Shown: positions 486 through 62,814, counted from the first letter of the stretch. The stretch is 64,000 nucleotides of DNA from an uncultured Lachnospira sp. (GCA_910585095.1 CAJUBU010000002.1:76622-140621), one strand, 5' to 3'. Notes: a model not told the origin generated them from the sequence alone. Numbers and translations are program-made.

Positions 486-1406
486 TTACTCTTTTCGCAG
501 TGCTTGTGCAATATCACTTATCTTTCTAAGCCGATGATTTACGCCTGATTTTCCAACAGGTGGAGAAAGTCGCTCTCCAATATCCTTAAGATTCATATCT
601 GGATTTTCAAGACGAATCATCGCTACATTATACAAAGGCTCTTTCAGATAACCAAGCCCCATTGTATCTCTGATATATTCTATATCTTTAATCTGTTTTA
701 CTGCCGCTTCAACCGTCTTATTGATATTGGCAGTCTCACAGTTTACCTTTCGATTTACATCATTGCGCATACCTTTTAAAATCATTACATTATATAAATC
801 CATCTGTGAGACAAACGCTCCCATAACATTAAGGCAGTCCGTAATATGATTGCCTTCTTTGATATAAGTAATATAATTATTTTTTCTGGCAATGACTTTG
901 GCGTCCAATTCAAAAAATGCAAACATTTCTTTAAGCTGTATTGCATCGGTCTGATTGGTACACACGATTTCATAATGATAGGATTTATTGGGATCACTTA
1001 TAGACCCTGCTGCCAAAAAAGCCCCTCTTATAAAAGCTCTTTTGCAACACTCCTTTTGTACAAGCAAGGAATTATTCAGCATTTTTCTTTCTGAATCATT
1101 CCACTTGATTGCCATTAATATTTTTTCAGTAACACTTTTATTTTGTATTTTTATATTAATAATATTATTTTTTTTGCCTTCATATTGCAATGCAATATCT
1201 TTGTTTGATACATTAAATGCACATTTTATTAACTGTACAAAAACATCTGCCACAATATCATTTTCTGTTGTTGCACAAAGTCCATCCCATTGATTACAGG
1301 TATTTGCACAAAATGCCATAATAGCGGCAAGTTCTGCTATCTGACAATCTTTGGCAGTATCAATTTTATGTTTTAATTCTTCTTTAACTTGTGATGAAAA
1401 AGACAT
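486..1406 (-). CDS. whiA: DNA-binding sporulation/cell-division regulator WhiA
   Basis: Starts MSFSSQVKEEL, typical of WhiA, with a LAGLIDADG-like middle region and a C-terminal HTH (GKSGVNHRLRKI). The ATG at 1406 lies 1 nt after the rapZ stop. The longer ORF start at 1436 is unlikely. Confidence 0.9.
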   Translation of the reverse strand: MSFSSQVKEELKHKIDTAKDCQIAELAAIMAFCANTCNQWDGLCATTENDIVADVFVQLIKCAFNVSNKDIALQYEGKKNNIINIKIQNKSVTEKILMAIKWNDSERKMLNNSLLVQKECCKRAFIRGAFLAAGSISDPNKSYHYEIVCTNQTDAIQLKEMFAFFELDAKVIARKNNYITYIKEGNHITDCLNVMGAFVSQMDLYNVMILKGMRNDVNRKVNCETANINKTVEAAVKQIKDIEYIRDTMGLGYLKEPLYNVAMIRLENPDMNLKDIGERLSPPVGKSGVNHRLRKISDIAQALRKE

Positions 1407-18124: not shown

Positions 18125-20281
18125 ATGAAAGATAAGATTTTTGGTGTATTGCAGCGTGTTGGTCGTTCTTTTATGCTTCCTATTGCGTTGCTGCCTGTGG
18201 CAGGACTTCTTCTTGGTATAGGCAGCTCATTCACCAATCCAACGACAATTGAGACCTATAATCTCAGCGGCATTATTTATGAAGGTGGTATTCTCTACAC
18301 CATTTTGGATATTATGAGCAAAACGGGAAGCGCTGTTTTCGACAATCTCGCCCTGCTCTTTGCTATGGGTGTTGCCATTGGAATGGCAAAAAAGGAAAAA
18401 GAAGTTGCTGCACTTTCAGGTGCAATCGCATTTTTAGTTATGAATACAGCTATCAGCGTTTTAATTTCCGCCAAAGGCGGCGTAGAGGCGATGGCAGAAA
18501 ACTCAACCACTTCTGTATTAGGTATCACAACCCTGCAAATGGGTGTATTTGGAGGTATTATTGTCGGTCTAGGCGTTGCCGCCCTACATAATAAATTCTA
18601 TAAAATTGAACTGCCTCAGGTACTCTCCTTTTTTGGCGGAACAAGATTTGTGCCAATTGTAGCAACAGTTGTCTATCTTATTGTCGGCATTATCATGTTT
18701 TACTTGTGGCCAGTTGTACAGTATGGAATTTCTCAACTTGGCGTACTTGTATTAAATTCTGGTTATGCAGGAACATGGGTTTATGGAATATTGGAACGCG
18801 CTCTTATTCCTTTTGGACTTCACCATGTTTTCTATATGCCATTCTGGCAGACCGAACTTGGTGGTTCTATGATAATTGACGGAAGTGTTGTAACAGGCGC
18901 ACAAAATATTTTCTTTGCAGAACTTGCTTCAAAATCAACAGAGGTCTTCTCTGTATCTGCAACAAGATTTATGTCTGGCAAATTCCCATTTATGATTTTT
19001 GGTTTGCCTGCTGCTGCTTTTGCCATGTATAGAACATCTCGTCCTGAAAAGAAAAAAGTGGTTGGCGGTCTGTTGCTTTCAGCAGCGCTGACTTCAATGC
19101 TTACAGGAATTACAGAACCGCTTGAATTTACATTTATCTTTGTTGCACCTCTTATGTATGGTGTACACTGTGTACTTGCAGGACTTTCTTATATGCTTAT
19201 GCACATTTTAAATGTAGGCGTCGGTATGACGTTCTCTGGCGGCGCTATTGACCTTACGCTGTTTGGTATTCTTCAGGGCAATGAAAAAACACATTGGATT
19301 TGGATTATTGTTGTAGGCTTAATTTACGCTGTTGTATATTATTTTGTTTTCTACTTTATGATTACAAAATTAAATTTAAAAACACCAGGTCGTGAACCAG
19401 ATGACGTTGAACCAAAACTTTACAGACGAAGTGATGTAAATGAAGCAAAAGCAGCAAAAGCTTCTGGCACAAACACAGATACCATCAGCGCACTTATCTT
19501 AAAAGGTCTTGGCGGAAAAGATAATCTTTCCGATGTTGACTGTTGTGCGACACGTCTTAGAATAACCGTTATTGACGTTTCAAAAGTAAGCGATAGCCTG
19601 CTTAAACAAAGCGGCGCTTCAGGCGTTATACACAAAGGAAATGGCGTGCAGGTAATATATGGACCAAGAGTTTCTGTTGTCAAGTCAAATCTTGAGGTCT
19701 TTATGGATTCTCCTTTGTCCGACAATCTTGACAGCATTTTAGATATTCCATCCGAAGAACCGGCTAACCAAAAAGCGGAAGCAAAGGATAGTTCAAATAA
19801 TCAACCTGAACCATCATCTTCTGGAAACGATACCATTACACTGTTTGCTCATATGAACGGAACAGTTGTTCCTCTTGAAAACGTAGAAGATGATGTCTTT
19901 TCACAAAAAATACTTGGCGATGGAATCGCTGTCGAACCTCAGGAAGGAAAACTGTTTGCTCCATGTGACGGCAAAATTGATTCTGTATTTGACACAAAAC
20001 ATGCAATTAATATTGTTTCTAGCAATAACACTGAAATATTGCTTCACATAGGAATTGATACTGTTAAATTAGAAGGCAAACATTTTGAGACGCATGTTTC
20101 TGACGGTCAAGATATTAAAAAAGGTGATTTGCTTATATCTTTTGATATGGAAGCCATCAAAGCAGAAGGCTTTAAACTGACAACACCATTAATTATATGC
20201 AACACAGACGATTATTCAAATATCACTCCTGCTGCACAAGGTGCTATTTTGGCAGGCGATGAAATAATAAAAATAAATTGA
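18125..20281 (+). CDS. ptsG: PTS glucose-family transporter, fused EIIC-EIIB-EIIA
   Basis: EIIC membrane domain, EIIB active-site CATRLR, and EIIA-Glc domain with HIGIDTVKLEGKHF. An AGGAGG RBS is present. Confidence 0.9.
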   Translation: MKDKIFGVLQRVGRSFMLPIALLPVAGLLLGIGSSFTNPTTIETYNLSGIIYEGGILYTILDIMSKTGSAVFDNLALLFAMGVAIGMAKKEKEVAALSGAIAFLVMNTAISVLISAKGGVEAMAENSTTSVLGITTLQMGVFGGIIVGLGVAALHNKFYKIELPQVLSFFGGTRFVPIVATVVYLIVGIIMFYLWPVVQYGISQLGVLVLNSGYAGTWVYGILERALIPFGLHHVFYMPFWQTELGGSMIIDGSVVTGAQNIFFAELASKSTEVFSVSATRFMSGKFPFMIFGLPAAAFAMYRTSRPEKKKVVGGLLLSAALTSMLTGITEPLEFTFIFVAPLMYGVHCVLAGLSYMLMHILNVGVGMTFSGGAIDLTLFGILQGNEKTHWIWIIVVGLIYAVVYYFVFYFMITKLNLKTPGREPDDVEPKLYRRSDVNEAKAAKASGTNTDTISALILKGLGGKDNLSDVDCCATRLRITVIDVSKVSDSLLKQSGASGVIHKGNGVQVIYGPRVSVVKSNLEVFMDSPLSDNLDSILDIPSEEPANQKAEAKDSSNNQPEPSSSGNDTITLFAHMNGTVVPLENVEDDVFSQKILGDGIAVEPQEGKLFAPCDGKIDSVFDTKHAINIVSSNNTEILLHIGIDTVKLEGKHFETHVSDGQDIKKGDLLISFDMEAIKAEGFKLTTPLIICNTDDYSNITPAAQGAILAGDEIIKIN

Positions 20282-20300
20282 GAAGAATAGGAGGATTCAT

Positions 20301-20558
20301 ATGAAAACATTTAATTACACTATCAAGGACGAAGTAGGTATTCATGCAAGACCAGCAGGCTTGCTTGCAAAAAAAGCAAAGGAATTTGAAAGTACCATTA
20401 CCATTCAAAAGGGCGAAAAATCGGTTAATGCCACCAAATTGATGATGCTTATGGGACTTGGTGTAAAATGCGGTGAAACTGTAACTATTACTGTTGAAGG
20501 TGCTGATGAAGAAAAAGCCGCTGTTGAAATGGAAGCATTTTTTAACGAAAATCTCTAA
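20301..20558 (+). CDS. ptsH: Phosphocarrier protein HPr (His15 present; canonical Ser46 not present)
   Basis: 85 aa with the GIHARPA active-site block and a GGAGGA RBS. The alignment position of Ser46 reads NATKLMML. Confidence 0.9.
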   Translation: MKTFNYTIKDEVGIHARPAGLLAKKAKEFESTITIQKGEKSVNATKLMMLMGLGVKCGETVTITVEGADEEKAAVEMEAFFNENL

Positions 20559-20573
20559 TAGGAGGTGTATGCT

Positions 20574-22208
20574 ATGATTCAGTTCATAGGTAAAGGCGTG
20601 TATGGCGCTATTGCTATGGGGAATGTTTCTATCTTTAAAAAACAAGACACCGTTGTAAAACGTGTTCATGCAGAAGATACAGAAGCAGAAAAAAAACGTG
20701 TTATCGCTGCTAGAGAAGCCTCAGCACAGCAGCTTAAAGAAATTTATGACAAGGCATTAAAAGAAGTTGGCGAAACACACGCTCAAATTTTTGATATACA
20801 TATTATGATGCTTGACGATGATGATTATAACGAATCCATTGAAAACATCATTGACACTCAAAGCGTTAATGCAGAGTATGCTGTTGCTGTTACTGCCGAT
20901 AATTTTGCCCAAATGTTTTCATCTATGGACGATGCCTATATGCAGGCTCGTGCCGCTGATGTAAAAGACATCTCTAATCGAATTATTGCAAACCTTACAG
21001 GGGCAATTTCACCAGAAACGCTTTCTAATGATAAAATGATTATATGTGCAGATGACCTTGCACCTAGTGAAACAGTCGCTCTTGACAAAGAAAAAGTCCT
21101 TGCATTTGTAACTGCACATGGTTCATCTAATTCGCATACGGCTATTCTTGCAAGAAATATGAATATCCCTGCCGTTATAGGTGTAGGTGATGATTTTCTT
21201 GCAAAAATAAAAAATGGTGATGAAGCTATTGTTGATGGATTTACAGGTGAAATCTTTATCAACCCTGATAACGCAACAAAAGAAAAAATGTTGCAAAAGC
21301 AAAAAGAAGATGAAGATAAAAAAAGATTGTTACAAGAACTTAAAGGCAAAGAAAATGTTACTCTTGATGGAACAAAAATCAATATTTTTGCCAATATTGG
21401 AAGCGTTGATAATATTGGAGCCGTTCTTGTAAATGACGCAGGTGGAATTGGTCTTTTTAGAAGTGAGTTTCTCTATCTTGAAAATGCAGATTATCCTACG
21501 GAAGAACAACAATTCAGTGCATATAAAAAAGTGCTTGAAAGTATGGCAAACAAAAAAGTCATTATCCGAACACTTGATATTGGTGCAGATAAACAGGTGG
21601 ATTATTTCAAATTGAAAAAAGAAGAAAATCCTGCACTTGGATATAGGGCAATTCGTATCTGCCTTAAACGCCCTGAAATTTTTAAAACACAGTTAAGGGC
21701 ATTGTACAGAGCTTCTGTATTTGGCAATTTAGGAATTATGTTCCCTATGATTACAAGTGTTTCAGAACTTGAAAAAATCTTAGAAATCTGCAATATTGTA
21801 AAATTAGAGCTTCAAGCTCAAAAAATAGAATATTCTGATAATATTGAGTTGGGCATTATGATTGAAACGCCAGCCGCTGCTATCATAAGCGACCGACTTG
21901 CACCAATGGTCGATTTTTTCAGTGTTGGAACAAACGACCTTACACAATATACGCTTGCCTGTGACCGACAAAACTCCGATATTGAAGAATTTGTCGATAC
22001 ACACCATGAAGCTATTTTGCGTTTAATTGAAATGTCTGCTGTCAACGCACATAAGCACGGTGCATGGATTGGCATATGCGGAGAACTTGCCGCTGACACA
22101 ACACTTACAGAAAACTTTTTGCAAATGGGAATTGATGAACTTTCTGTATCGCCAACATTTGTGCTTAAAGTACGAGATGCTGTGCGAAAGATTAATTTGA
22201 AAAAATAA
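20574..22208 (+). CDS. ptsI: Phosphoenolpyruvate-protein phosphotransferase (Enzyme I)
   Basis: Phospho-His block GSSNSHTAILARN and a PEP-utilising C-terminal TIM domain (IGTNDLTQY). The ATG at 20574 lies 8 nt after GGAGG. Confidence 0.95.
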   Translation: MIQFIGKGVYGAIAMGNVSIFKKQDTVVKRVHAEDTEAEKKRVIAAREASAQQLKEIYDKALKEVGETHAQIFDIHIMMLDDDDYNESIENIIDTQSVNAEYAVAVTADNFAQMFSSMDDAYMQARAADVKDISNRIIANLTGAISPETLSNDKMIICADDLAPSETVALDKEKVLAFVTAHGSSNSHTAILARNMNIPAVIGVGDDFLAKIKNGDEAIVDGFTGEIFINPDNATKEKMLQKQKEDEDKKRLLQELKGKENVTLDGTKINIFANIGSVDNIGAVLVNDAGGIGLFRSEFLYLENADYPTEEQQFSAYKKVLESMANKKVIIRTLDIGADKQVDYFKLKKEENPALGYRAIRICLKRPEIFKTQLRALYRASVFGNLGIMFPMITSVSELEKILEICNIVKLELQAQKIEYSDNIELGIMIETPAAAIISDRLAPMVDFFSVGTNDLTQYTLACDRQNSDIEEFVDTHHEAILRLIEMSAVNAHKHGAWIGICGELAADTTLTENFLQMGIDELSVSPTFVLKVRDAVRKINLKK

Positions 22209-22214
22209 ATATTA

Positions 22215-22258
22215 AAAGATATTCATTTTGCTTTACTGCTTTCTCATAACCTTATAGC
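22215..22258. repeat. Dispersed intergenic repeat, copy 3 (diverged 5' part)
   Basis: AAAGATATTCATTTTGCTTTACTGCTTTCTCATAACCTTATAGC. The 3' half, CTGCTTTCTCATAACCTTATAGC, closely matches copy 1 CTGCTTGCTCATAACCTCATTGC. Lies in the ptsI 3' UTR before the terminator. Confidence 0.45.
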
Positions 22259-34459: not shown

Positions 34460-34722
34460 CCGCGCATCTGATATCGAACGCTAGCCCACAGACGTTACCG
34501 ATACAGTTAGCTCGATTCAGGCACCCTTTCGGCACACGAAAGGTTTCACTTAATGCTGCTTCATTCCTGACCTGACATGATTCATGAATTTCCGTTGCGA
34601 AAGACCCAAATGTCAACACCACTTTTATCGGGCTGCTCCATAAACTATCGCCCTCCACCAGACATCACCCCTGCTATAGCGGATTGCAGGTACAAGGTGC
34701 CGCTACTACCCCGGCTGCGCGG
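34460..34722 (-). ncRNA. ffs: Signal recognition particle RNA, large Bacillus/Clostridium type with Alu domain
   Basis: The minus strand reads ...GUCAGGUCAGGAAUGAAGCAGC..., matching the conserved SRP domain IV. The termini pair (CCGCGCA / UGCGCGG). It lies immediately upstream of dnaX, as in B. subtilis scr. Ends are approximate (+/-10 nt). Confidence 0.8.
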
Positions 34723-49202: not shown

Positions 49203-52200
49203 TCAAAAACATTCCCGAATTTTCTTATATATTGCTTTGCATTTGCGTCCAAATGTCTGTTTCATAACCCTAAAAATTCCCCACATACCAGATTCTACAT
49301 CCCATGCAAAACTGCCTGAGCGATAAAGGTAATCACCAGGACAACTGGCGCCATCTAAAAGTTCCACATCAAACTTATTGCCAATACTAACACCACCTTG
49401 TAAAGGAATAATTCTTGAAAATGGGTCTTGTAGCTGTTCTTTCCATAAATGGTCGTGAATTGCAATAGATGTATTTCTTGGCTTATCTGCGGGCATTATA
49501 ACTCGAAAAACAACTCGGTCTCCAGGATAGGCTTTCCATATAGGAGTTGCTGGGTCGCCATGTACTTTACTACTAAATACCTTCCATACTCTAGGGTCTC
49601 TTGCAAGACGATTTGCAAATCGTTCCGACCTATAATTGTAGCCTTTTTCTCCTGTGTCTTCTGCATCTACTGGCTCTCCGTTATCCTCTGCCGCAGTTTG
49701 GATTATATTTCCCTTTACATCAAGCAAACGGATTCCATTTTGAATAAATACAACATATTCTCGAAAATTCTCAATTCCTGGCGCTGTAATTACTGCCTGT
49801 TCTGCAAAATCATCTTTTTTTCTGGTAAAATTTCGATACCACTCTGCACCTGCTGGTTCTACAATAACCGCTCCAAATAATCCATGATAACGATGGTTTC
49901 TCATATCTCCAAAAGACTGTATAATACAGCCTCCATACTCTTGATTTGCATGCCAAAGATATCGCTTGCTCTCTCCAACCCCTACGGTCTGTTCCATTTC
50001 ATTATACCCTATATTGATGCCAGAATCACAAACGGGATTATATTGCAGAAATTGCGGATTTAAAGAAACTCTCATAGAAGGTGTATATTCCTTATCCAAA
50101 GGAACTCTCGGATAAGAAAAATAAGGAATTGGATGTTCTGGATTCCATGCATTATGCAAGGTAACCTCTATCCAGTCGCCTACATTTGCCCTGAGAATTA
50201 ATGGCTTTGGCATACATTTTCCTGACAATATATTATCCAAGTCCTCTAGGGGAACAAATAGCAAGCCATTTGGGTCATGGTCACCATATCGGTTGTAAAT
50301 TAACTTCTTTTGCACAGCAACAATTTCATAGCGCCTAATTACATCATCTTTTGACGGACAAGGCAAAAGAGGGTGAATCATACCTTTTCCTTGATATAAT
50401 GGTTTTAAGTGCTTTCTATATCTTCTATGCACTCGTATAATCCCCCAAAGTCCAAGCCATACATCATCAATACCTCCAAAATAATAGAGATAGTCTCCTG
50501 CACCATATTTTTGCGTTACATTCAAATTAAATGCCTCTGATACTCCTAATGTCTGAGAAGCGGCAAGGGGTGACTTGAAATCTGCGGATTCTTTTTTCCA
50601 TGACATACCTGTAATATTAAAGGAATGCTGTTCCTCATGCGCTCCGTCAAGCAGGCGAATCATCAATTCATCACCTGGATAGGTTTCAAAAATTGGTGTT
50701 GCTGGGTCACCATGCACAAAAGAGCTAAAAATATATGCTGGGTCTTCTTTTTTGCGAAGACGCTCTCTCATTGGCTCTGCTCTGTAATTAATTCCCATAA
50801 CACCTGGGTCGTCATGAGAACCAGGAACTTTCGGCGGATTAAGCGGGTTCCCTTTTCTATCGAAAAGAAAAGCAAAATCATGGACAAACAAAGCAAATTC
50901 CCTGAACGAAGTTCCATTTTTTCTGCGGATAACCGCCTGTGTTCCAAAACGCAGCTCTTTTCCATTCTGTGGATTATGAAATGTAGCTCCTGCCTCCTCA
51001 ATAATCAATGCGCCAAACAATCCATGCTGCTGATGAACATTAGCAAACAGATGGTCATGAAAGAATATCGTTTTTAATTCTTCATTTGCAAAAAAACGTT
51101 CCACTAATGTTTCGTATCGCCTTGCACCTGCAATATTATTCCAGCCATTAGCTGCCCCGTCTGAAACAATAGTATCAAATTTTACTAAATGTACATGATG
51201 ACCTACAATATCCGTCCTCGTTTTAGGCTGAAATGGACTTTCTTCAATAAATTCAGGCAAAAGGTTTGTGGTGCGTAGCTCAATACAATCTCCTGCATTT
51301 GCACGAATGACTAAAGGTTCTACTTTTATTTCTTGTTTTTCTACTTTACGAATATAACACTCCAAGCCTCCATAACGCTCCAATTCTTCCTTGAGAACAA
51401 AAAAACGTCCCTGTGGGTCATGCCAGCCATAGCGGTTATAGGTGATTTTTGCCTGTACCATGGCAATCTCAAATATTTTTACATTCTTATCTGTATGACA
51501 TGGACAAGTGTCTGTATACAATGCACCAGGCACTGCATTTTCCACAAAATTAGCACGCTCAAGCGGGGTTGGTTTATTAGTCACTTCCCCATTTGGTCTC
51601 AATACACCAAGCGGTGGCTGCAACGGCTTTTCACCAAACTTGCCCTCAATAAAATTAGGATAACCTGGATGCATGTTATCTTTCTTTGGTGGACACTCCC
51701 TGTCTTTTAACGGCACAAGCGGCAAAATAGGTGTCCCATCAGGCAATTTTCCACTCCCATCCTGAAGTCGGTCATAAATTCTCCATAAAGTCCACATTCC
51801 CTCAATAAAATGAGGATAGAGATGACAATGAAATATCACGTCTCCAATCACTCTATTTAGGCTTCCAGCTCCGTATAAAATATCTAATGTATAACATTCT
51901 TGTGGACTAATACTAACAGAATCCAGAATCGTTGAAACGGGATTGTCTGGCTCTAATCTCCACTGATGGTTATGAAGATGAAAAACATGAGTTTCCTTCA
52001 CTCCACCATGAATCAATCGTATCTTTACTGGGTCGCCGACATAAGCAAAAAGTATTGGCGGCGCTGGGTCACCATATACCCATGAACTCATAGATACATC
52101 TTCTGCAGAGTCAGCAGGGTCATGTGTTTTTGGCATTCGATTTCGCATAGGTTCAGAACGATAACTGATTGCTGTTGTTGATGCTGGAAGTCCTGTATGA

Positions 52201-52850
52201 GTATCAACTGGCGGTTCACCATCTTTATTTAAAATTTCCAACTCATCGTGAAAAAAAATACTATACTCCCTAAATGCTGGCTTTCCGGGCTGGTAAATAT
52301 CTGCCATCAACCCGCTTTTCAATTCTTCACCCGTTTCTGGATTAAACCACTTTGCTTCTGGCGCTTCTACAATAACAGCTCCAAACAGACCATGAATGTT
52401 AGTTGCATCTTCTGTACTTCTGCAATCTGCCATATCGTGAAACAGATATACGCCCTCTGTATCCGCATACCACGTATACCAGATTTCTCCGCTTGTAGTG
52501 CTGTCATTATTGTATCCTACACTGCTTCCATCTGAAGTATTAACATCATAAGAAAGTCCTTGTACATGTATCGACAATCTCCGATTGAGACAATTCCGAA
52601 ATCGAACTTTCACCGTATCTCCTAAATTAACGCGAATTACTAACGGTTGCACTTCCTTATATGGCTGTGGTATATCCATCTCAAATCGTTGGAGTGCTTC
52701 TCTTTTAATCCTTGCAGCATCTTCCTCAAACACATAAAGCAGTCCATTCGGGTCATAATCTCCATATCGATTATATACAATAGGAATCTGTATTGCCTCA
52801 ATATGAAAAATCTTGACATTTTCTTTCTTTGGGTATTTGCATAATTCCAT
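49203..52850 (-). CDS. Leaderless multicopper-oxidase-like protein of about 1215 aa built from three tandem two-domain repeats (six predicted cupredoxin domains)
   Basis: Canonical MCO motifs HVFHLH (HxxHxH) and HCHLYPHFIEGM (HCHx3Hx4M), plus HHVHL and FHDH. Three-fold repetition of the blocks NVKIF.I..Q..YNRYG.(Y/H)DP.G, PL(V/I)(I/L)RAN.GD, HGLFGA(V/L)I(V/I)E, FRE(Y/F), YR(S/A)E and HGDPA(T/P)PI. The ATG at 52850 follows a GGTAGGA RBS and lies 1 nt after the upstream stop. Confidence 0.7.
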   Translation of the reverse strand: MELCKYPKKENVKIFHIEAIQIPIVYNRYGDYDPNGLLYVFEEDAARIKREALQRFEMDIPQPYKEVQPLVIRVNLGDTVKVRFRNCLNRRLSIHVQGLSYDVNTSDGSSVGYNNDSTTSGEIWYTWYADTEGVYLFHDMADCRSTEDATNIHGLFGAVIVEAPEAKWFNPETGEELKSGLMADIYQPGKPAFREYSIFFHDELEILNKDGEPPVDTHTGLPASTTAISYRSEPMRNRMPKTHDPADSAEDVSMSSWVYGDPAPPILFAYVGDPVKIRLIHGGVKETHVFHLHNHQWRLEPDNPVSTILDSVSISPQECYTLDILYGAGSLNRVIGDVIFHCHLYPHFIEGMWTLWRIYDRLQDGSGKLPDGTPILPLVPLKDRECPPKKDNMHPGYPNFIEGKFGEKPLQPPLGVLRPNGEVTNKPTPLERANFVENAVPGALYTDTCPCHTDKNVKIFEIAMVQAKITYNRYGWHDPQGRFFVLKEELERYGGLECYIRKVEKQEIKVEPLVIRANAGDCIELRTTNLLPEFIEESPFQPKTRTDIVGHHVHLVKFDTIVSDGAANGWNNIAGARRYETLVERFFANEELKTIFFHDHLFANVHQQHGLFGALIIEEAGATFHNPQNGKELRFGTQAVIRRKNGTSFREFALFVHDFAFLFDRKGNPLNPPKVPGSHDDPGVMGINYRAEPMRERLRKKEDPAYIFSSFVHGDPATPIFETYPGDELMIRLLDGAHEEQHSFNITGMSWKKESADFKSPLAASQTLGVSEAFNLNVTQKYGAGDYLYYFGGIDDVWLGLWGIIRVHRRYRKHLKPLYQGKGMIHPLLPCPSKDDVIRRYEIVAVQKKLIYNRYGDHDPNGLLFVPLEDLDNILSGKCMPKPLILRANVGDWIEVTLHNAWNPEHPIPYFSYPRVPLDKEYTPSMRVSLNPQFLQYNPVCDSGINIGYNEMEQTVGVGESKRYLWHANQEYGGCIIQSFGDMRNHRYHGLFGAVIVEPAGAEWYRNFTRKKDDFAEQAVITAPGIENFREYVVFIQNGIRLLDVKGNIIQTAAEDNGEPVDAEDTGEKGYNYRSERFANRLARDPRVWKVFSSKVHGDPATPIWKAYPGDRVVFRVIMPADKPRNTSIAIHDHLWKEQLQDPFSRIIPLQGGVSIGNKFDVELLDGASCPGDYLYRSGSFAWDVESGMWGIFRVMKQTFGRKCKAIYKKIRECF

Positions 52851-52851
52851 A

Positions 52852-53763
52852 CTAATTCCTACCCTTCTGTGCATGATTTAAAATACGTAAATAGTGATTT
52901 GCTTCACGAAGTACATGGTCTGCCAAAAGAGGAAGAATAACAGAACGGATTTTACAATCTGTAATACCTTGTGTTCCCGCTGTCTTAAACTGCTGATATT
53001 GTTTTGTTGTCTGCAATGTTGTTGCAGTCAACGCATTCATTACTTTTCTTTCCTGTTCTCTCGCCTCTTCTAAAAGATGACAGTAATCTTTTGCAAATTC
53101 ATTGGCTTTTTCAATCAATTCACACTCTGTTGGGTCTAATAATCCCCGAATAAACTGAGCATGTTCCATCATAATCTGATTCCAAAATATTTCCATATTT
53201 CTTAAATCAAACATTGGGATTCTACCATTCTTTTCAAGCTCTAAAATAATCTGGCGATATAATTTCGCTTCCCGCAAGATATGTTCAATCAACAGGGGAT
53301 AATTTGTAGTATAAAGTCTACACCTTGTCACTTCTCTTAAAACCTCTTCTTTAAATGAAATCAATCCATTCAAGCTTTTTAGCATCTGGCGATTTAACAT
53401 TCTTACCTGAGAAATCATTTGTCTATTTACCATCATATTATTTTTAGAACAAAGTTGTTCTTCCTCCTCCGTAATCTTCACATCAATTGGGATTCCTGTC
53501 AAATCGCTTGTCTGGCATTCTGCTTTTTGCGTAAATTCTGTTACAACCTCTCCAGAATCTAAAACAGCTTGGCTTACAATGCCATTTGCAAGCTCTACTG
53601 TCTTTTTTAATCCCTCCTCAAATTCTTGTCGGAAGCAATCTGCACGCTGTATAAACTCGGTTTCCTTTGTCGGAAAACTTGCGAGCAAAAATAAGGAATG
53701 TTCCTTCATAATTCTTCCAAAAAAAAGATGTGTTTCTAGTGATAAAGTCGCATATTCTTTCAT
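52852..53763 (-). CDS. DUF2935-like helical (putative metal-binding) protein with internal duplication
   Basis: Two homologous halves each carry IM(K/M)EH(S/A).F and PLL(I/A)(E/D)H(I/V)LREA(K/N).Y. From memory the pattern matches Firmicute DUF2935 proteins. Confidence 0.6.
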   Translation of the reverse strand: MKEYATLSLETHLFFGRIMKEHSLFLLASFPTKETEFIQRADCFRQEFEEGLKKTVELANGIVSQAVLDSGEVVTEFTQKAECQTSDLTGIPIDVKITEEEEQLCSKNNMMVNRQMISQVRMLNRQMLKSLNGLISFKEEVLREVTRCRLYTTNYPLLIEHILREAKLYRQIILELEKNGRIPMFDLRNMEIFWNQIMMEHAQFIRGLLDPTECELIEKANEFAKDYCHLLEEAREQERKVMNALTATTLQTTKQYQQFKTAGTQGITDCKIRSVILPLLADHVLREANHYLRILNHAQKGRN

Positions 53764-54513: not shown

Positions 54514-54730
54514 TTTCTTTGCAAACAAGCGCAAATAAAACTTGTTGCAACAATAAAAATAAGCTTATTACCTATTTATGCTGAAACGTTACAAATAGGG
54601 TTTGACACGACAATAGAATCCACCTTACAAATGTTTTAGCGTTTTCTATTGTCCAACTCCTACGCTTCAAAATAGAGGATTAGTGTGAAAAATAAATTGT
54701 TTCACAAGTTAAATAAAATTTAACTAACAA

Positions 54731-54818
54731 TTTGTGTCTGCGCGTTGCTTGACACAAAGTTGTAAAAACAAAATGTTTTATTTTGTTTTTTGCGCAAAAA
54801 GCAGCGCAGAAATGGGGA
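54731..54818 (+). promoter_or_regulatory. Conserved leader element, copy A (hairpin plus loop-to-downstream complementarity ending at the SD)
   Basis: TTTGTGTC[TGCGCGTTGCTT]GACACAAA hairpin. Loop bases are complementary to AAGCAGCGCAG (54799-54809), which lies just before GAAATGGGGA and the ATG at 54824. A near-identical architecture occurs at 60911-61000. Confidence 0.45.
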
Positions 54819-54823
54819 TTTTT

Positions 54824-55363
54824 ATGAATACTACATATTCCAACAGCCACATTACACTGCGCGTATTAGATGAACGCCACAGTCGGCATATTCTTGATTT
54901 TTACAGCAATAACCGACAGTATTTTGATATTTACGAAATGGATAAACCTGCTTCTTTTTATACATCCGACTTTATAAAACAAATGACAAAAGCGGAATAT
55001 AATGCCTTTATTCAAGGAACATTTATCCGCTATTTTCTATTTGCCAACAATAATCCAGACCAAATTATTGGCTGCATATCCTTTTCAGATATCAAAAAAA
55101 GTATGCTTTCTTGTACGATTGGATATAAAATTGACAAAAATTATCAAAATTTAGGTTATGGGAGACGTATGTTGACTATGGCTTTAAAATTTATGGTTAC
55201 AGAATGTAATATGCATCGAATTGAAGCTTATATTCACCCTTGTAATCGGGCATCGCTGCACCTTGTAAAAACACTTGGTTTTATTGATGAAGGCACAGCT
55301 TATGCCTATGCCAAAATAAACGGACAATGGATAGACCATCTTCGATTTGTTTATATTTCCTGA
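54824..55363 (+). CDS. GNAT-family N-acetyltransferase (RimJ/RimL-like)
   Basis: About 180 aa with an acetyl-CoA binding block (QNLGYGRRML) and a typical RimJ-like N-terminus (ITLRVLDERH). The ATG at 54824 follows GGGGA. Confidence 0.8.
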   Translation: MNTTYSNSHITLRVLDERHSRHILDFYSNNRQYFDIYEMDKPASFYTSDFIKQMTKAEYNAFIQGTFIRYFLFANNNPDQIIGCISFSDIKKSMLSCTIGYKIDKNYQNLGYGRRMLTMALKFMVTECNMHRIEAYIHPCNRASLHLVKTLGFIDEGTAYAYAKINGQWIDHLRFVYIS

Positions 55364-60549: not shown

Positions 60550-60910
60550 TTTATTTCCTCCCATCTTCTCTAAAAATTTATTTCCGTAAGCAATGAGCCA
60601 AGTGCCGTGCTTGCACGAGCATTTGGCGAATGCCGTGAGGGTCAAATACCCCGCTGCTCTGTAGCGTTACAAGCTTGATATTCCGTTGCTTGTAGTAGGG
60701 TATTTGATTTTTCCAAGCAGTAAGCCAAACATTATACTTAAAGTCAACATATCATTTCACTGATTTGTTTAGCATATTGGCAAATGCTATGAATGTCAAA
60801 TAATAATGATTTATTCAATATACCACAAGAAAATTCTTATATCAAGAGTCTTTGCATATGTTATAATAATGTTGCAATAATTTAGTCTATACAAAATTTT
60901 CACATTAAAC

Positions 60911-61000
60911 TTTGTGTTTATGCGTTGCTTGACACAAAGTTACTAAAAAAATTCTTTGAGTTTTTTACATTTTTATAAAAAAGCAACGCAGAAATGAGGA
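60911..61000 (+). promoter_or_regulatory. Conserved leader element, copy B
   Basis: TTTGTGTT[TATGCGTTGCTT]GACACAAA hairpin. The loop sequence TGCGTTGCTT is perfectly complementary to AAGCAACGCA (60981-60990), just before GAAATGAGGA and the ATG at 61006. An extended -10 (TGTTATAAT, 60859-60867) lies upstream, so the element should be transcribed. Confidence 0.45.
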
Positions 61001-61005
61001 ATTTT

Positions 61006-62814
61006 ATGTTTTTCACCAAACAAACATTACCTAAAAAATTGCTGATACTTCTTTTATGTGTCAGTATGATACTATGCAGCAGCTGTCAAAGTCCTTTTAA
61101 CTCCAAACAAGAAAATACAACTGCTGCCAGCCATTCAGACAATCAACAAGTCAATCAAGATTTTGATTCCTTTGTCAAAGAACTATTTTATAATACTGTA
61201 ACTTCAAGCACCATATATCTTCACACCTTTTTAGAACACCCTGAAAACTACGGAATTACAGAATATGATGTTACCTATGGAGACATTGATTTAGAAAACC
61301 TTGACGATATGAGCAATCTTTCGGACAGCTTATCACAGTTACTCTGTTATGACAAAGAGCAGCTTACTGCATCCCAAAAGATTACTTATGACGAATTAAA
61401 ATGGTATCTTGAAACCGAGTTAGAATACAGCGACTTAGCATTATTAGAACATATCTTTTCTCCTGTAATTGGCGTTAATGTGCAATTGCCTATCACACTG
61501 GCACAATATGCTTTTAAAGAAGAAAAAGATGTCAAGGAATATCTTACATTGTTAGAAGATACTGACCGCTATTTTTCTCAACTAATGGCATATGAAAAAT
61601 TAAAAAGTGAAAAAGGGTATTTTATGGAAAGTGGCAACGCTGAAAAAATAATCAAACAATGTCAAGAATTTGTAAACGATTGCAATGATGGATTTCTAAT
61701 AACTTCTTTTAAAGAACGATTGGACACTTTACATATCAATGATGAAAATAAAATCAACGAATATATTGAAAAAAATAAAAAAGCAGTCAATGACCATGTT
61801 AAGAAAGCCTATCAGATTATAATCGACGGATTTAATGAAATTAAAAACACAGGAAAATGTACGGGCGGACTATGCAATTATCCAAACGGCGATAAATACT
61901 ACCAATATTTAATTGAATCGGATATGGGCTGGCAAAAATCATTAGATGAATACGATGATTTTATCAATAAATATATCACCTATTTTTCTAATATGCTGTC
62001 CAAATTAATGACAGACGATATAACCCTTGCCTACCAACTTGAAAATCTTTCCTTTGGCAATAAAACACCTGAAAACATGCTTTCTGACTTAAAAAATAAG
62101 ATAGCAAATGATTTTCCAGAACCTGTAAATGTAGGTTACAACATAAAATATATTGCAGAATCTCTCCAGCCTTACGCAAGCCCTGCTATGTACTTTTTTC
62201 CGCAAATTGATGATTTAAATGATAATTCTATCTACATTAATCCCGGAACCAATGATGCATCGGATTTATATACAACAATGGCGCATGAAGGATATCCCGG
62301 ACACTTATATCAAACCACCTACTTTGTCAACACCAAACCTGATTTAATCCGTCATCTTATATCACTTGGCGGTTATACAGAAGGATGGGGAACTTACTGT
62401 GAAGCACAGTCTTATATGTATGCCGAGACAGACAATACCAATTTAAAAATGCTTGCACAGGCAAACTTTTCATTAACAATGCTTATGTATGGAAAAGTTG
62501 ATATTGGTATCAATCACTATGGCTGGACAGAAAATGATGTTTTTAGCTTTATTGAGACATTTGGAATTTCAAGCCGCTCCATTGCACATGATATGTACAA
62601 TTCCATTGTTGCAGAACCAGGCAACTATGCAAAATATGTACTTGGATATATTGGATTTTTGGAATTAAAAGAGGAGGCTAAAAAACTCCTTAAAGATTCA
62701 TTCAATCTCAAGGAGTTTCATCAATATATATTAGATATGGGACCTGTTCCTTTTAAAATGTTATTTGACAATCTAAACACTCTAACAATAAAGACAACCG
62801 CTTCCACAAAATAG
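61006..62814 (+). CDS. DUF885-family protein, probable lipoprotein (metallopeptidase-like HExxPGH motif)
   Basis: Signal peptide ending in Cys residues ([16 protein letters not shown]). Has the block [10 protein letters not shown], characteristic of DUF885. The ATG at 61006 lies 5 nt after GAGGA. Confidence 0.8.

Follow-up and report, generated by a model that had tools for sequence, protein, structure and literature searches.

A probable family of mobile, structured translation-initiation leaders lodged between Shine-Dalgarno sequence and start codon in Lachnospiraceae

Why should two genes with no evident functional tie carry the same structured leader directly ahead of their start codons? 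The question is raised by a stretch of 64,000 nucleotides (nt) from an uncultured Lachnospira sp. (GCA_910585095.1 CAJUBU010000002.1:76622-140621), called the window throughout, in which a GNAT acetyltransferase gene and a DUF885 lipoprotein gene are preceded by copies A and B of a hairpin whose loop is complementary to a block beside the Shine-Dalgarno sequence (SD). A sequence-only reading had taken this arrangement for a riboswitch-like or protein-bound RNA element co-regulating the two genes. We compared the window with loci of its relatives, numbered L001, L022 and so on. The explanation that we favour, by a modest measure, is that copies A and B are members of a family of structured translation-initiation leaders of ~90-180 nt, dispersed and recently mobile, that is present in Lachnospiraceae and on mobile-element contigs.

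The two loci lie as described, 6.2 kb apart on the plus strand and each 5' of a plus-strand gene, with the hairpin starting at 54731 in copy A (93 nt before the ATG at 54824) and at 60911 in copy B (95 nt before the ATG at 61006). A 20-mer from the hairpin half (GCGTTGCTTGACACAAAGTT) and a 22-mer from the SD-proximal block (AAAAGCARCGCAGAAATGRGGA) each occur exactly twice in the 64 kb, always on the plus strand, where shuffles expect 0.00 occurrences. Copies A (54730-54823) and B (60910-61005) have in common a 9-bp hairpin, whose arms TTTGTGTC/GACACAAA were recovered in copy A by an inverted-repeat search. The order in copy A is ATTTGTGTC-TGCGCGTTGCTT-GACACAAAG, a 38-nt A/U spacer and AAAGCAGCGCAGAAATGGGGATTTTT-ATG; in copy B it is CTTTGTGTT-TATGCGTTGCTT-GACACAAAG, a 40-nt spacer and AAAGCAACGCAGAAATGAGGAATTTT-ATG. 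In a strict architecture screen of the window copy B alone passes with exact 8-mers, and AT-only matches stay at the level of shuffles. The complementarity between the loop and the block just 5' of the SD was borne out in both copies, with 9 bp in A (GCGTTGCTT:AAGCAGCGC, including one U.G; the inverted-repeat search also gives a second register of 7 bp, TCTGCGC:GCGCAGA) and 10 bp in B (TGCGTTGCTT:AAGCAACGCA). The supposed covariation between the copies, with both partners changed together, did not survive: the loop strand GCGTTGCTT is identical and the block alone differs, G versus A, which turns U.G into U-A. The extent of 54731-54823 also proved too short, as the conserved unit begins at 54682 with an extra hairpin, P0, and reaches the SD.

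Comparison with relatives marks copy A as a lineage-specific insertion, found in the window only, with two outgroup lineages empty. In the closest relatives (GNAT 90% identical; L001-L004 and L017) the empty site reads ...AATAGAGGATTTTTATG and the spacer between tadA and GNAT ends in ...CAAAATAGAGGATTTTTATG; in the second lineage (GNAT 89%; L039-L044) the corresponding sequences are ...AATAGAGAATTTTTATG and ...CAGAATAGAGAATTTTTATG. A relative with a 76% identical GNAT has tadA overlapping GNAT and no element. The spacer of the window equals that of the relatives plus 139 nt between AGAGGATT and TTTATG; GGATT stands at both ends of the insertion, and within it the exact junction is ambiguous. 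The native GNAT SD was thereby left upstream, stranded, and the GTG of P0 lies 6 nt past it, that is, at the expected position of the start codon. The copy at L022, 5' of a different gene, is 91% identical to copy A over about 180 nt. Conversely, L023 (Lachnospira sp. MGBC164289, of the L001 lineage), syntenic with window 19044-22217 at about 91% identity, has a copy of 160 nt at the ptsH-ptsI junction, a site that is empty in the window. This reciprocal presence and absence between genomes that are about 90% identical means that copies were gained at different times in the clade. Copy B is older: orthologous copies with U.G-compatible changes exist in L001, L017 and L051, and the DUF885 orthologues at 85% and 74% identity (L006, L007) keep the probable TGYTATAAT promoter, have unrelated leaders and lack the element. 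A riboswitch conserved with DUF885 was rejected on this ground, as the orthologues retain the promoter and not the leader.

How far does the family, which we denote Y, extend? A scan with a pattern for P1 only, P1 being the hairpin first noticed, covered one genome per species and gave 14 sites in 7 metagenome-assembled genomes (MAGs), six of them in one Lachnospira MAG and four in one 'Eubacterium' MAG. All 14 sites are followed by the block, the tail and the SD and, 60-190 nt further along that strand, by a start codon, and every start codon behind a scanned copy opens a real open reading frame (ORF). The 20 ORFs downstream of copies, with GNAT and DUF885 not counted, have Pfam domains unrelated to one another. 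The genes served include those for Fer4_12 (NrdG-like activase), PAP2, AP_endonuc_2 (Nfo-type endonuclease), PyrI, FlgE/F/G, a CoaD-type protein, PtsI, KDPG aldolase, HIGH_NTase1, P-II and a cohesin protein, and on mobile-element contigs YqaJ, DUF3848 and a large serine recombinase. Together with sister families described below, there are ~26 copies (18 Y, 5 X and 3 V), all on the sense strand and at a fixed distance from the start codon. A unit co-regulating GNAT and DUF885 is thus not supported, given the lineage-specific insertion of copy A, the DUF885 orthologues without leader and the ~20 unrelated genes that carry the element.

The unit has a regular order. The target's own SD and 4-8 nt are followed by (AGT)GTGAAAAATAAATTTTTCAC, which is P0, by a short linker or an AT-rich palindromic module, and by P1; then come a variable spacer, the block, AGAAAT, G(A/G)GGATT, N3 and ATG. 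A replacement SD is thereby placed at a fixed distance from the start (..AGAAATGAGGATT-N3-ATG), and the tail and the GAAATG-N9-ATG spacing are unchanged in nearly all copies. P0 is identical in sequence in distant copies and on mobile-element contigs, and in L018 it shows compensatory GGTTG/CAACC changes. An SD-like 4-mer stands within 14 nt 5' of the P0 GTG in 13 of the 15 copies with P0, against a background of 5%. Copies without P0 (L011, L016, L019, L021) and one consisting of the 3' module alone (L011:7495-7542, the one such fragment among the diverged copies that nhmmer found in the fetched loci, counted among the 18) indicate a constant 3' and a variable 5' boundary. The optional module is confined to the subfamily of copy A, L012, L022 and L023 and holds the stop of a 12-codon upstream ORF (uORF) begun at the P0 GTG. 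In other copies the spacer measures 13-110 nt and is usually a hairpin of unrelated sequence. Two spacers were seen to consist of tandem repeats, namely three units of about 33 nt in L011 (~960-840, minus strand) and five or more 19-nt units (GCTGTTCATGAATAAGAAA) in L021 (~400-260, minus strand). A typical Y copy was also noted on a contig (L018, JAMPHH010000018.1) of a MAG labelled Muribaculum (Bacteroidota), which could be due to mis-binning or horizontal transfer. Other searches gave little: a degenerate P0 pattern and a gapped P0 plus P1 pattern returned unrelated palindromes only, plasmid BLAST gave no match, and a phage origin was dismissed after both Y-specific patterns yielded chance 18-mer matches only in viral contigs.

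Sister families with the same scaffold and other loops lend the pairing much support. X1 is an older leader in the native spacer between tadA and GNAT, uninserted in L001 and L039, and its tail ends in the native SD AGAGGA, now vestigial. Its form is CCTATTTGTG-[CYGAAGCGT]-CACAAATAGG, a variable hairpin and CTACGCTTCRGAAT(A/G)GAGGATT-N3-ATG, with homologues at two further loci, L022 2895-3012 (plus strand) and 514-646 (minus strand). Loop and tail block of X1 are reverse complements of each other, perfectly so in the plus-strand copy of L022; L039 has CTGAAGTGT/ACGCTTCAG, a compensatory change from C-G to U-A plus one U.G, and in the window the complementarity is degenerate (-4.9 kcal/mol). 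The window and L022 each have a Y copy immediately after an X1 leader. X2 (L020 7060-6908, minus strand; 5' of the HIGH_NTase1 gene) has a P0 whose loop is enlarged by an 11-nt insertion, the TTTGTG/CACAAA stem, the loop CCGAGAACGT and the block GCGTTCTCGG. The exact P0 20-mer, searched in viral contigs, found three true relatives, V, on the mobile-element contigs L046 (323-450 and 1342-1425, plus strand) and L047 (3457-3378, minus strand), which are GC-richer. They stand 5' of YqaJ, of DUF3848 and of the second of three tandem large serine recombinase genes, with loops TGCCTGCGGCY and blocks like G(T/C)CGCAGGC. The recombinase ORF that precedes the L047 copy continues across the element and ends 1 nt before the next ATG, so insertions into overlapping gene pairs are tolerated.

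Y, X1, X2 and V2/3 have the TTTGTG/CACAAA stem and the tail in common, and their loops and blocks differ yet match within each family. In a cross-pairing matrix every P1 loop was set against the 30 nt preceding every SD; own pairings average -14.4 kcal/mol and between-family pairings -6.9 (standard deviation 3.2, n=90). Within the 18 Y copies P1 and loop:block together are 98.1% paired, and the P1 stem alone is 98.8% paired, with U.G changes and one compensatory C-G change. The helix substitutions in Y run among U-A, U.G and C-G and are compatible with pairing on the plus strand only. Taken together, the matrix and these strand-specific substitutions lead us to regard loop:block pairing as under selection in a single-stranded, sense-strand nucleic acid, of which mRNA is the simplest candidate. 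The pairing ends 3-8 nt before the SD in Y, X1, X2 and V1 (in V2 and V3 the SD is unclear). The SD-adjacent pseudoknot topology of the riboswitch-like reading was thus strengthened by the sister families, and the riboswitch for GNAT and DUF885 was given up.

In this context, how could the fold act? Each copy sits on the sense strand between a gene's original SD and its start codon and supplies the replacement SD; in the mechanism that we propose, the co-transcribed RNA would fold into P0, P1, a variable P2 and a 9-10-bp pairing of the P1 loop with the block 5' of the new SD. The 5' arm of P1 (CUUUGUG) would switch between two partners. Pairing with the 3' arm of P1 would produce an H-type pseudoknot that leaves the SD open, and pairing with the tail AUGAGG an extended helix that masks it. 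Such switching would let the cassette set or gate the translation of any gene behind it. Predicted folds contain both states, with comparable energies in most copies. In state 1 P1 forms and leaves the loop free for the block, in a pseudoknot topology whose crossing linker in Y is the 3 variable loop nt; in state 2 CUUUGU and the loop pair with the block, AGAAAU and AUGAGG in one extended helix, which buries 4 of the 5 SD nt in 7 of 10 Y copies and in the best X1 copy. Under constraint folding the energy with P1 blocked minus that with P1 forced ranges from -6.4 to +4.7 kcal/mol, and the unconstrained minimum-free-energy fold is state 2 for copy B and state 1 for copy A. The two-state model would explain the U-rich 5' arm of P1, its perfect partner CACAAA and the 'ATG-purine' tail.

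A further layer may lie in the uORF. Ribosomes starting at the retained upstream SD and the P0 GTG, read as a leader ORF, may turn the cassette on, as the repY uORF does for repZ of ColIb-P9; our analysis treats this relay as possible. A conserved leader peptide was rejected, as a frameshift in L010, the stop in the optional module and other scattered stops rule against it, and the similarity in MKNKFFT..FV arises because the nucleotides of P0 and P1 are conserved. The uORF stop overlaps the main start in L015 and L018 only and lies 1 nt before it in L047.

Several observations weigh against this account. We infer from sequence both that the leader is transcribed and that its RNA fold affects expression. 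Covariation within Y, which had been expected along with the further copies that were indeed found in relatives, is not significant: the family is too conserved, and shuffles scored as high as the real copies in 109-177 of 500 trials. Four copies have a loop:block mismatch, internal in L011 and L012 and at helix ends in L013 and L016. The alternative fold of copy A masks 0 of the 5 nt of its SD (GGGGA), and the predicted SD accessibility (0.47, as against 0.42 with shuffled upstream sequence) shows a weak trend. The loops of X1 and X2, 9-10 nt long, are complementary over their full length; complete pairing beside P1 is sterically doubtful there, so that the two pairings may be alternatives and form no pseudoknot. 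Frame, length and stop position of the uORF are not conserved, and that of copy A stops before P1. Copy numbers are modest, and the metagenome scan gave just one further locus, assembled twice (L024/L025), besides one chance match. At the copies compared, neither a transposase nor a terminal inverted repeat nor a consistent target duplication was found, and the mobility therefore lacks a mechanism.

What the ends of the copies offer instead are candidate routes. No IS200/IS605-type transposase is encoded among the ORFs flanking the copies in L022, L046 and L047 (whole genomes were not searched), and the recombinase genes beside these copies are the serine recombinases of L046 and L047 only. 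No inverted repeat joins the ends of copy A, and the consensus ends AGTGTGAAAAAT... and ...GAAATGAGGATT are not complementary. GGATT flanks copy A; at the other copies an SD that varies lies 1-8 nt before the end of the left flank, and on the right the sequence is the element's own. When the 3' end of Y copies is joined to the 5' end, the product is GAGGATT|AGTGTG, an SD-N6-GTG, and new copies might thus arise through crossover at an SD-like GAGGATT core. V and X2 have no ATT at the left junction, so this core cannot be the general mechanism. The L022 copy nearest to copy A also follows an X1 leader, and the last 29 nt of X1 match at 24 of 29 positions; the 91% likeness and the shared X1 flank make ectopic conversion between X1 leaders a possible route for copy A. 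Truncation at the 5' end with a constant 3' end hints at an RNA-templated route. A bolder proposal, which we put forward tentatively as possible, is that these are self-propagating 'translation-initiation cassettes' that colonise the gap between SD and start, replace the SD and gate initiation through a programmable loop:block switch, with loop and block defining lineages; ribosome-binding sites might then be targeted by an unconventional route, by recombination at an SD-like core or RNA-templated.

The same observations have to be read against other explanations. Insertion polymorphism among relatives and near-identical copies at unrelated loci in several genera would also suit a selfish non-autonomous DNA element, like a miniature inverted-repeat transposable element (MITE) or a PATE, whose hairpins and loop:block pairing would help a transposase or recombinase acting in trans to recognise or cleave single-stranded DNA; the fold of the RNA would then be incidental, and copies would survive only in SD-ATG spacers, where an SD is regenerated by the element. 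A strand-specific structure whose changes tolerate G.T pairs fits single-stranded DNA as well, the variable 5' truncation with constant 3' end (L011, L016, L019, L021 and the 3'-only L011:7495-7542) agrees with it, and serine recombinase genes adjoin copies in L046 and L047. The lack of terminal inverted repeats and of a consistent target duplication speaks against it, and so do the dissimilar 5' and 3' hairpins, whereas IS200/IS605 ends should resemble each other. Nor does selection alone readily explain why ~26 sense copies lie at start codons and none at other neutral intergenic sites, and tail, SD and P1 stem are conserved across families with differing loops. We consider such an element unlikely, if deserving of real weight. 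The DNA could also act as promoter or operator, with TTGACA, present in all Y copies, as -35 and with P0, a near-perfect palindrome, and P1 as sites for transcription factors. No suitably spaced -10 follows, however, and the spacer after P1 differs in every subfamily; the X and V families have no TTGACA, P0 tolerates the 11-nt loop insertion of X2 and the compensatory arm changes of L018, and the changes in P1 are of U.G type and hence strand-specific. The view that the embedded TTGACA is not a promoter was upheld by a promoter scan, which predicted no sigma-70-type promoter around copy A on either strand, and we find a DNA-level signal scarcely credible.

Two further explanations keep the RNA and differ in what acts on it. 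The conserved hairpin with SD-adjacent pairing 5' of two genes 6.2 kb apart, in an element without internal promoter, is what one would see of a classical riboswitch or protein-binding leader with a regulon including GNAT and DUF885, the interpretation first given to this locus; several riboswitch classes do place a pseudoknot beside the SD. The downstream genes have no common pathway, and the element is missing before the orthologues of GNAT (90%, 89%, 76%) and DUF885 (85%, 74%) in close relatives. Loop and block, where a ligand pocket would most obviously be sought, vary freely between families, and the conserved nt are confined to helices and the SD tail. That no known riboswitch class is involved agrees with the Rfam comparison: at gathering scores Rfam 15 gave no match to the element in the window and five copy-bearing loci, and at E<=10 the interval 54600-54900 gave chance-level matches only, to unrelated eukaryotic and small RNA models. 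We judge a riboswitch regulon very improbable. A small antisense RNA or an RNA-binding protein might instead bind P1 or P0 in competition with the pseudoknot, as Inc RNA does in ColIb-P9, and place all cassette-bearing genes under one control. This has a precedent in the IncI and IncB plasmids (PMC4705826), and P0 and the P1 stem are indeed conserved in sequence and not just in structure, even in GC-richer mobile-element contexts. No antisense promoter is predicted in copy A, loops differ between families so that one antisense RNA could not serve all, and no candidate protein was identified; we regard control in trans as improbable. The mobile leader family remains the reading that we prefer, and as exact matches to the element sequences appear in no searchable paper, it is apparently undescribed so far.

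Should this reading hold, abundant gut Firmicutes would owe part of their gene expression to a ready-made ribosome-binding leader that can move in front of any gene; translation signals would have a new route for spreading, and genes inside operons a new way of being uncoupled or re-coupled. The matched variable loop and block on a constant scaffold would amount to natural orthogonal pseudoknot switches, useful for RNA engineering, and the strict placement between SD and start raises the testable question of how a DNA element targets ribosome-binding sites. There is also a practical hazard, in that the element breaks short-read assemblies exactly at gene starts and yields spurious upstream in-frame starts. 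Contigs of independent short-read assemblies end inside P1 (L051-L053) or exactly at the GNAT ATG (L038), as is expected at a repeat, and thus indirectly indicate that the element is repeated in those genomes. In the window an in-frame ATG stands 12 nt before each true start (ATG-N9-ATG; 54813-54826 and 60994-61008), together with a GTG at 54734, and ORF calls run too long in consequence (54734..55363 and 60994..62814). In our proposal this upstream ATG would be part of the SD-masking pairing and no start.

The features of the window are collected in Table 1. The extended -10 kept upstream of copy B is probably the DUF885 promoter, judging by its conservation, which would put copy B in the 5' untranslated region; the promoter scan missed it because of a weak -35. 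In copy A the terminator scan gave no intrinsic terminator.

Table 1. Features of the copies, their neighbours and the empty site in the window
Feature	Position	Strand	Remarks
Y element copy A, insertion	54682..54820	+	139 nt between native SD...ATT and TTTATG
P0 hairpin GTGTGAAAAAT..TTGTTTCACA	54683..54706	+	inverted-repeat search
Optional AT-rich palindromic module AGTTAAATAAAATTTAACTAACA	54707..54729	+	inverted-repeat search
P1 hairpin	54730..54759	+	5' arm 54730-54738, 12-nt loop 54739-54750, 3' arm 54751-54759
Loop strand GCGTTGCTT of putative pseudoknot / long-range helix	54742..54750	+	partner 54799-54807
P2, variable A/U-rich spacer hairpin	54764..54790	+	inverted-repeat search
3' block AAGCAGCGC	54799..54807	+	complementary to P1 loop
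Tail AGAAAT, element-borne SD GGGGA (54814-54818) and spacer	54808..54823	+	GNAT start next at 54824
GNAT (Acetyltransf_3) gene behind copy A	54824..55363	+	
X1 leader, older, native tadA-GNAT spacer	54570..54681	+	uninserted in L001, L039
X1 parts	P1x hairpin 54570-54600; variable hairpin 54609-54653; tail CTACGCTTCAAAATAGAGGATT 54660-54681	+	
Copy B of Y element, older copy	60897..61005	+	decayed P0 remnant 60897-60904, P1 60910-60939
Copy B 3' parts	P2 60945-60966; block AAGCAACGCA 60981-60990; SD GAGGA 60996-61000	+	
DUF885 lipoprotein gene behind copy B	61006..62814	+	
Conserved extended -10 TGTTATAAT	60859..60867	+	kept in window, L001, L007, L006; sequence 3' of it not kept
Empty site TAATAGGAGGTGTATGCTATGATT, ptsH-ptsI junction	20556..20579	+	Lachnospira sp. 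MGBC164289 (L023) has Y copy there

Two other observations concern the window at large. Between the ABC-2 permease and DUF2935 genes it has an ORF for a 1223-amino-acid multicopper-oxidase-like protein (49203-52874, minus strand), where the matching interval in L001 (3387-5995) holds radical-SAM, HxlR, AraC and cupin genes, a replaced island. A large bacterial signal recognition particle RNA (Rfam RF01854, 196 bits) lies at 34460-34722 on the minus strand and agrees with a Firmicutes genome; by our comparisons the organism is a Lachnospira/Eubacterium-like member of the Lachnospiraceae.

Among known systems, the control of repZ and repA in IncI-alpha (ColIb-P9), IncB and IncL/M plasmids comes closest in layout. 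In both there is an SD further upstream with a short ORF, which in the element is not conserved, and a stem-loop some 100 nt ahead whose loop can pair directly 5' of the downstream SD; the initiation region also has a competing inhibitory fold, in the element a predicted one. SD and ATG downstream are strong in the element, unlike the weak SD and GUG of repZ, and the full pairing in ColIb-P9 is 4 bp, as against 9-10 bp in the element. In ColIb-P9 and IncB, translation of the leader ORF lets the hairpin loop pair with CGCC just 5' of the repZ SD, and the resulting pseudoknot holds the initiation site open against a competing inhibitory fold (PMC4705826; PMC8053102). The element differs further in showing neither an evident antisense RNA nor similarity of sequence, and its uORF stop is not fixed near the downstream ribosome-binding site; it occurs in multiple copies before unrelated chromosomal genes and without a plasmid match, whereas repZ and repA are a single plasmid replication control. 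SD-masking RNA switches offer partial likenesses. As in fourU and ROSE thermometers, the SD is bound by a U-rich strand in the predicted alternative fold of the element, with U.G and U-A pairs, and the pseudoknot abuts the SD as in the preQ1-II and SAM-II/V riboswitches; unlike these, the element has no Rfam match, no conserved ligand pocket and no coherent gene set, and is known here by predicted folds.

For dispersal, the Correia elements of Neisseria, ERIC, RUP/BOX and the Rickettsia palindromic elements are 100-200-nt structured non-coding repeats with polymorphic presence and absence. Co-transcribed MITEs and other dispersed repeats lie within mRNAs and can alter expression, and the Rickettsia palindromic elements are tolerated at constrained positions. 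The element has multiple dispersed copies with presence/absence polymorphism, like MITEs; repeats of the Correia, ERIC, RUP and BOX type carry terminal inverted repeats and/or target duplications and sit in either orientation at loosely defined intergenic or in-frame sites, from which it differs. Unlike the PATE derived from IS200/IS605, it has P0 at its 5' end and no similar hairpin at the 3' end. To our knowledge, no MITE or small dispersed repeat occupies the spacer between SD and start and supplies the SD. In T4-type phages, PeSLs are short expression signals repeated before many unrelated genes, and closely related phages differ by insertions and deletions whose boundaries fall at these signals (PMC2839356). 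As 'mobile regulatory cassettes' they resemble the element in placing conserved short signals before many unrelated genes. PeSLs are early promoters with a terminator-like stem-loop and act as recombination substrates between whole genes; the element bears an SD instead of a promoter and is inserted alone inside the SD-ATG spacer, with no gene moving along.

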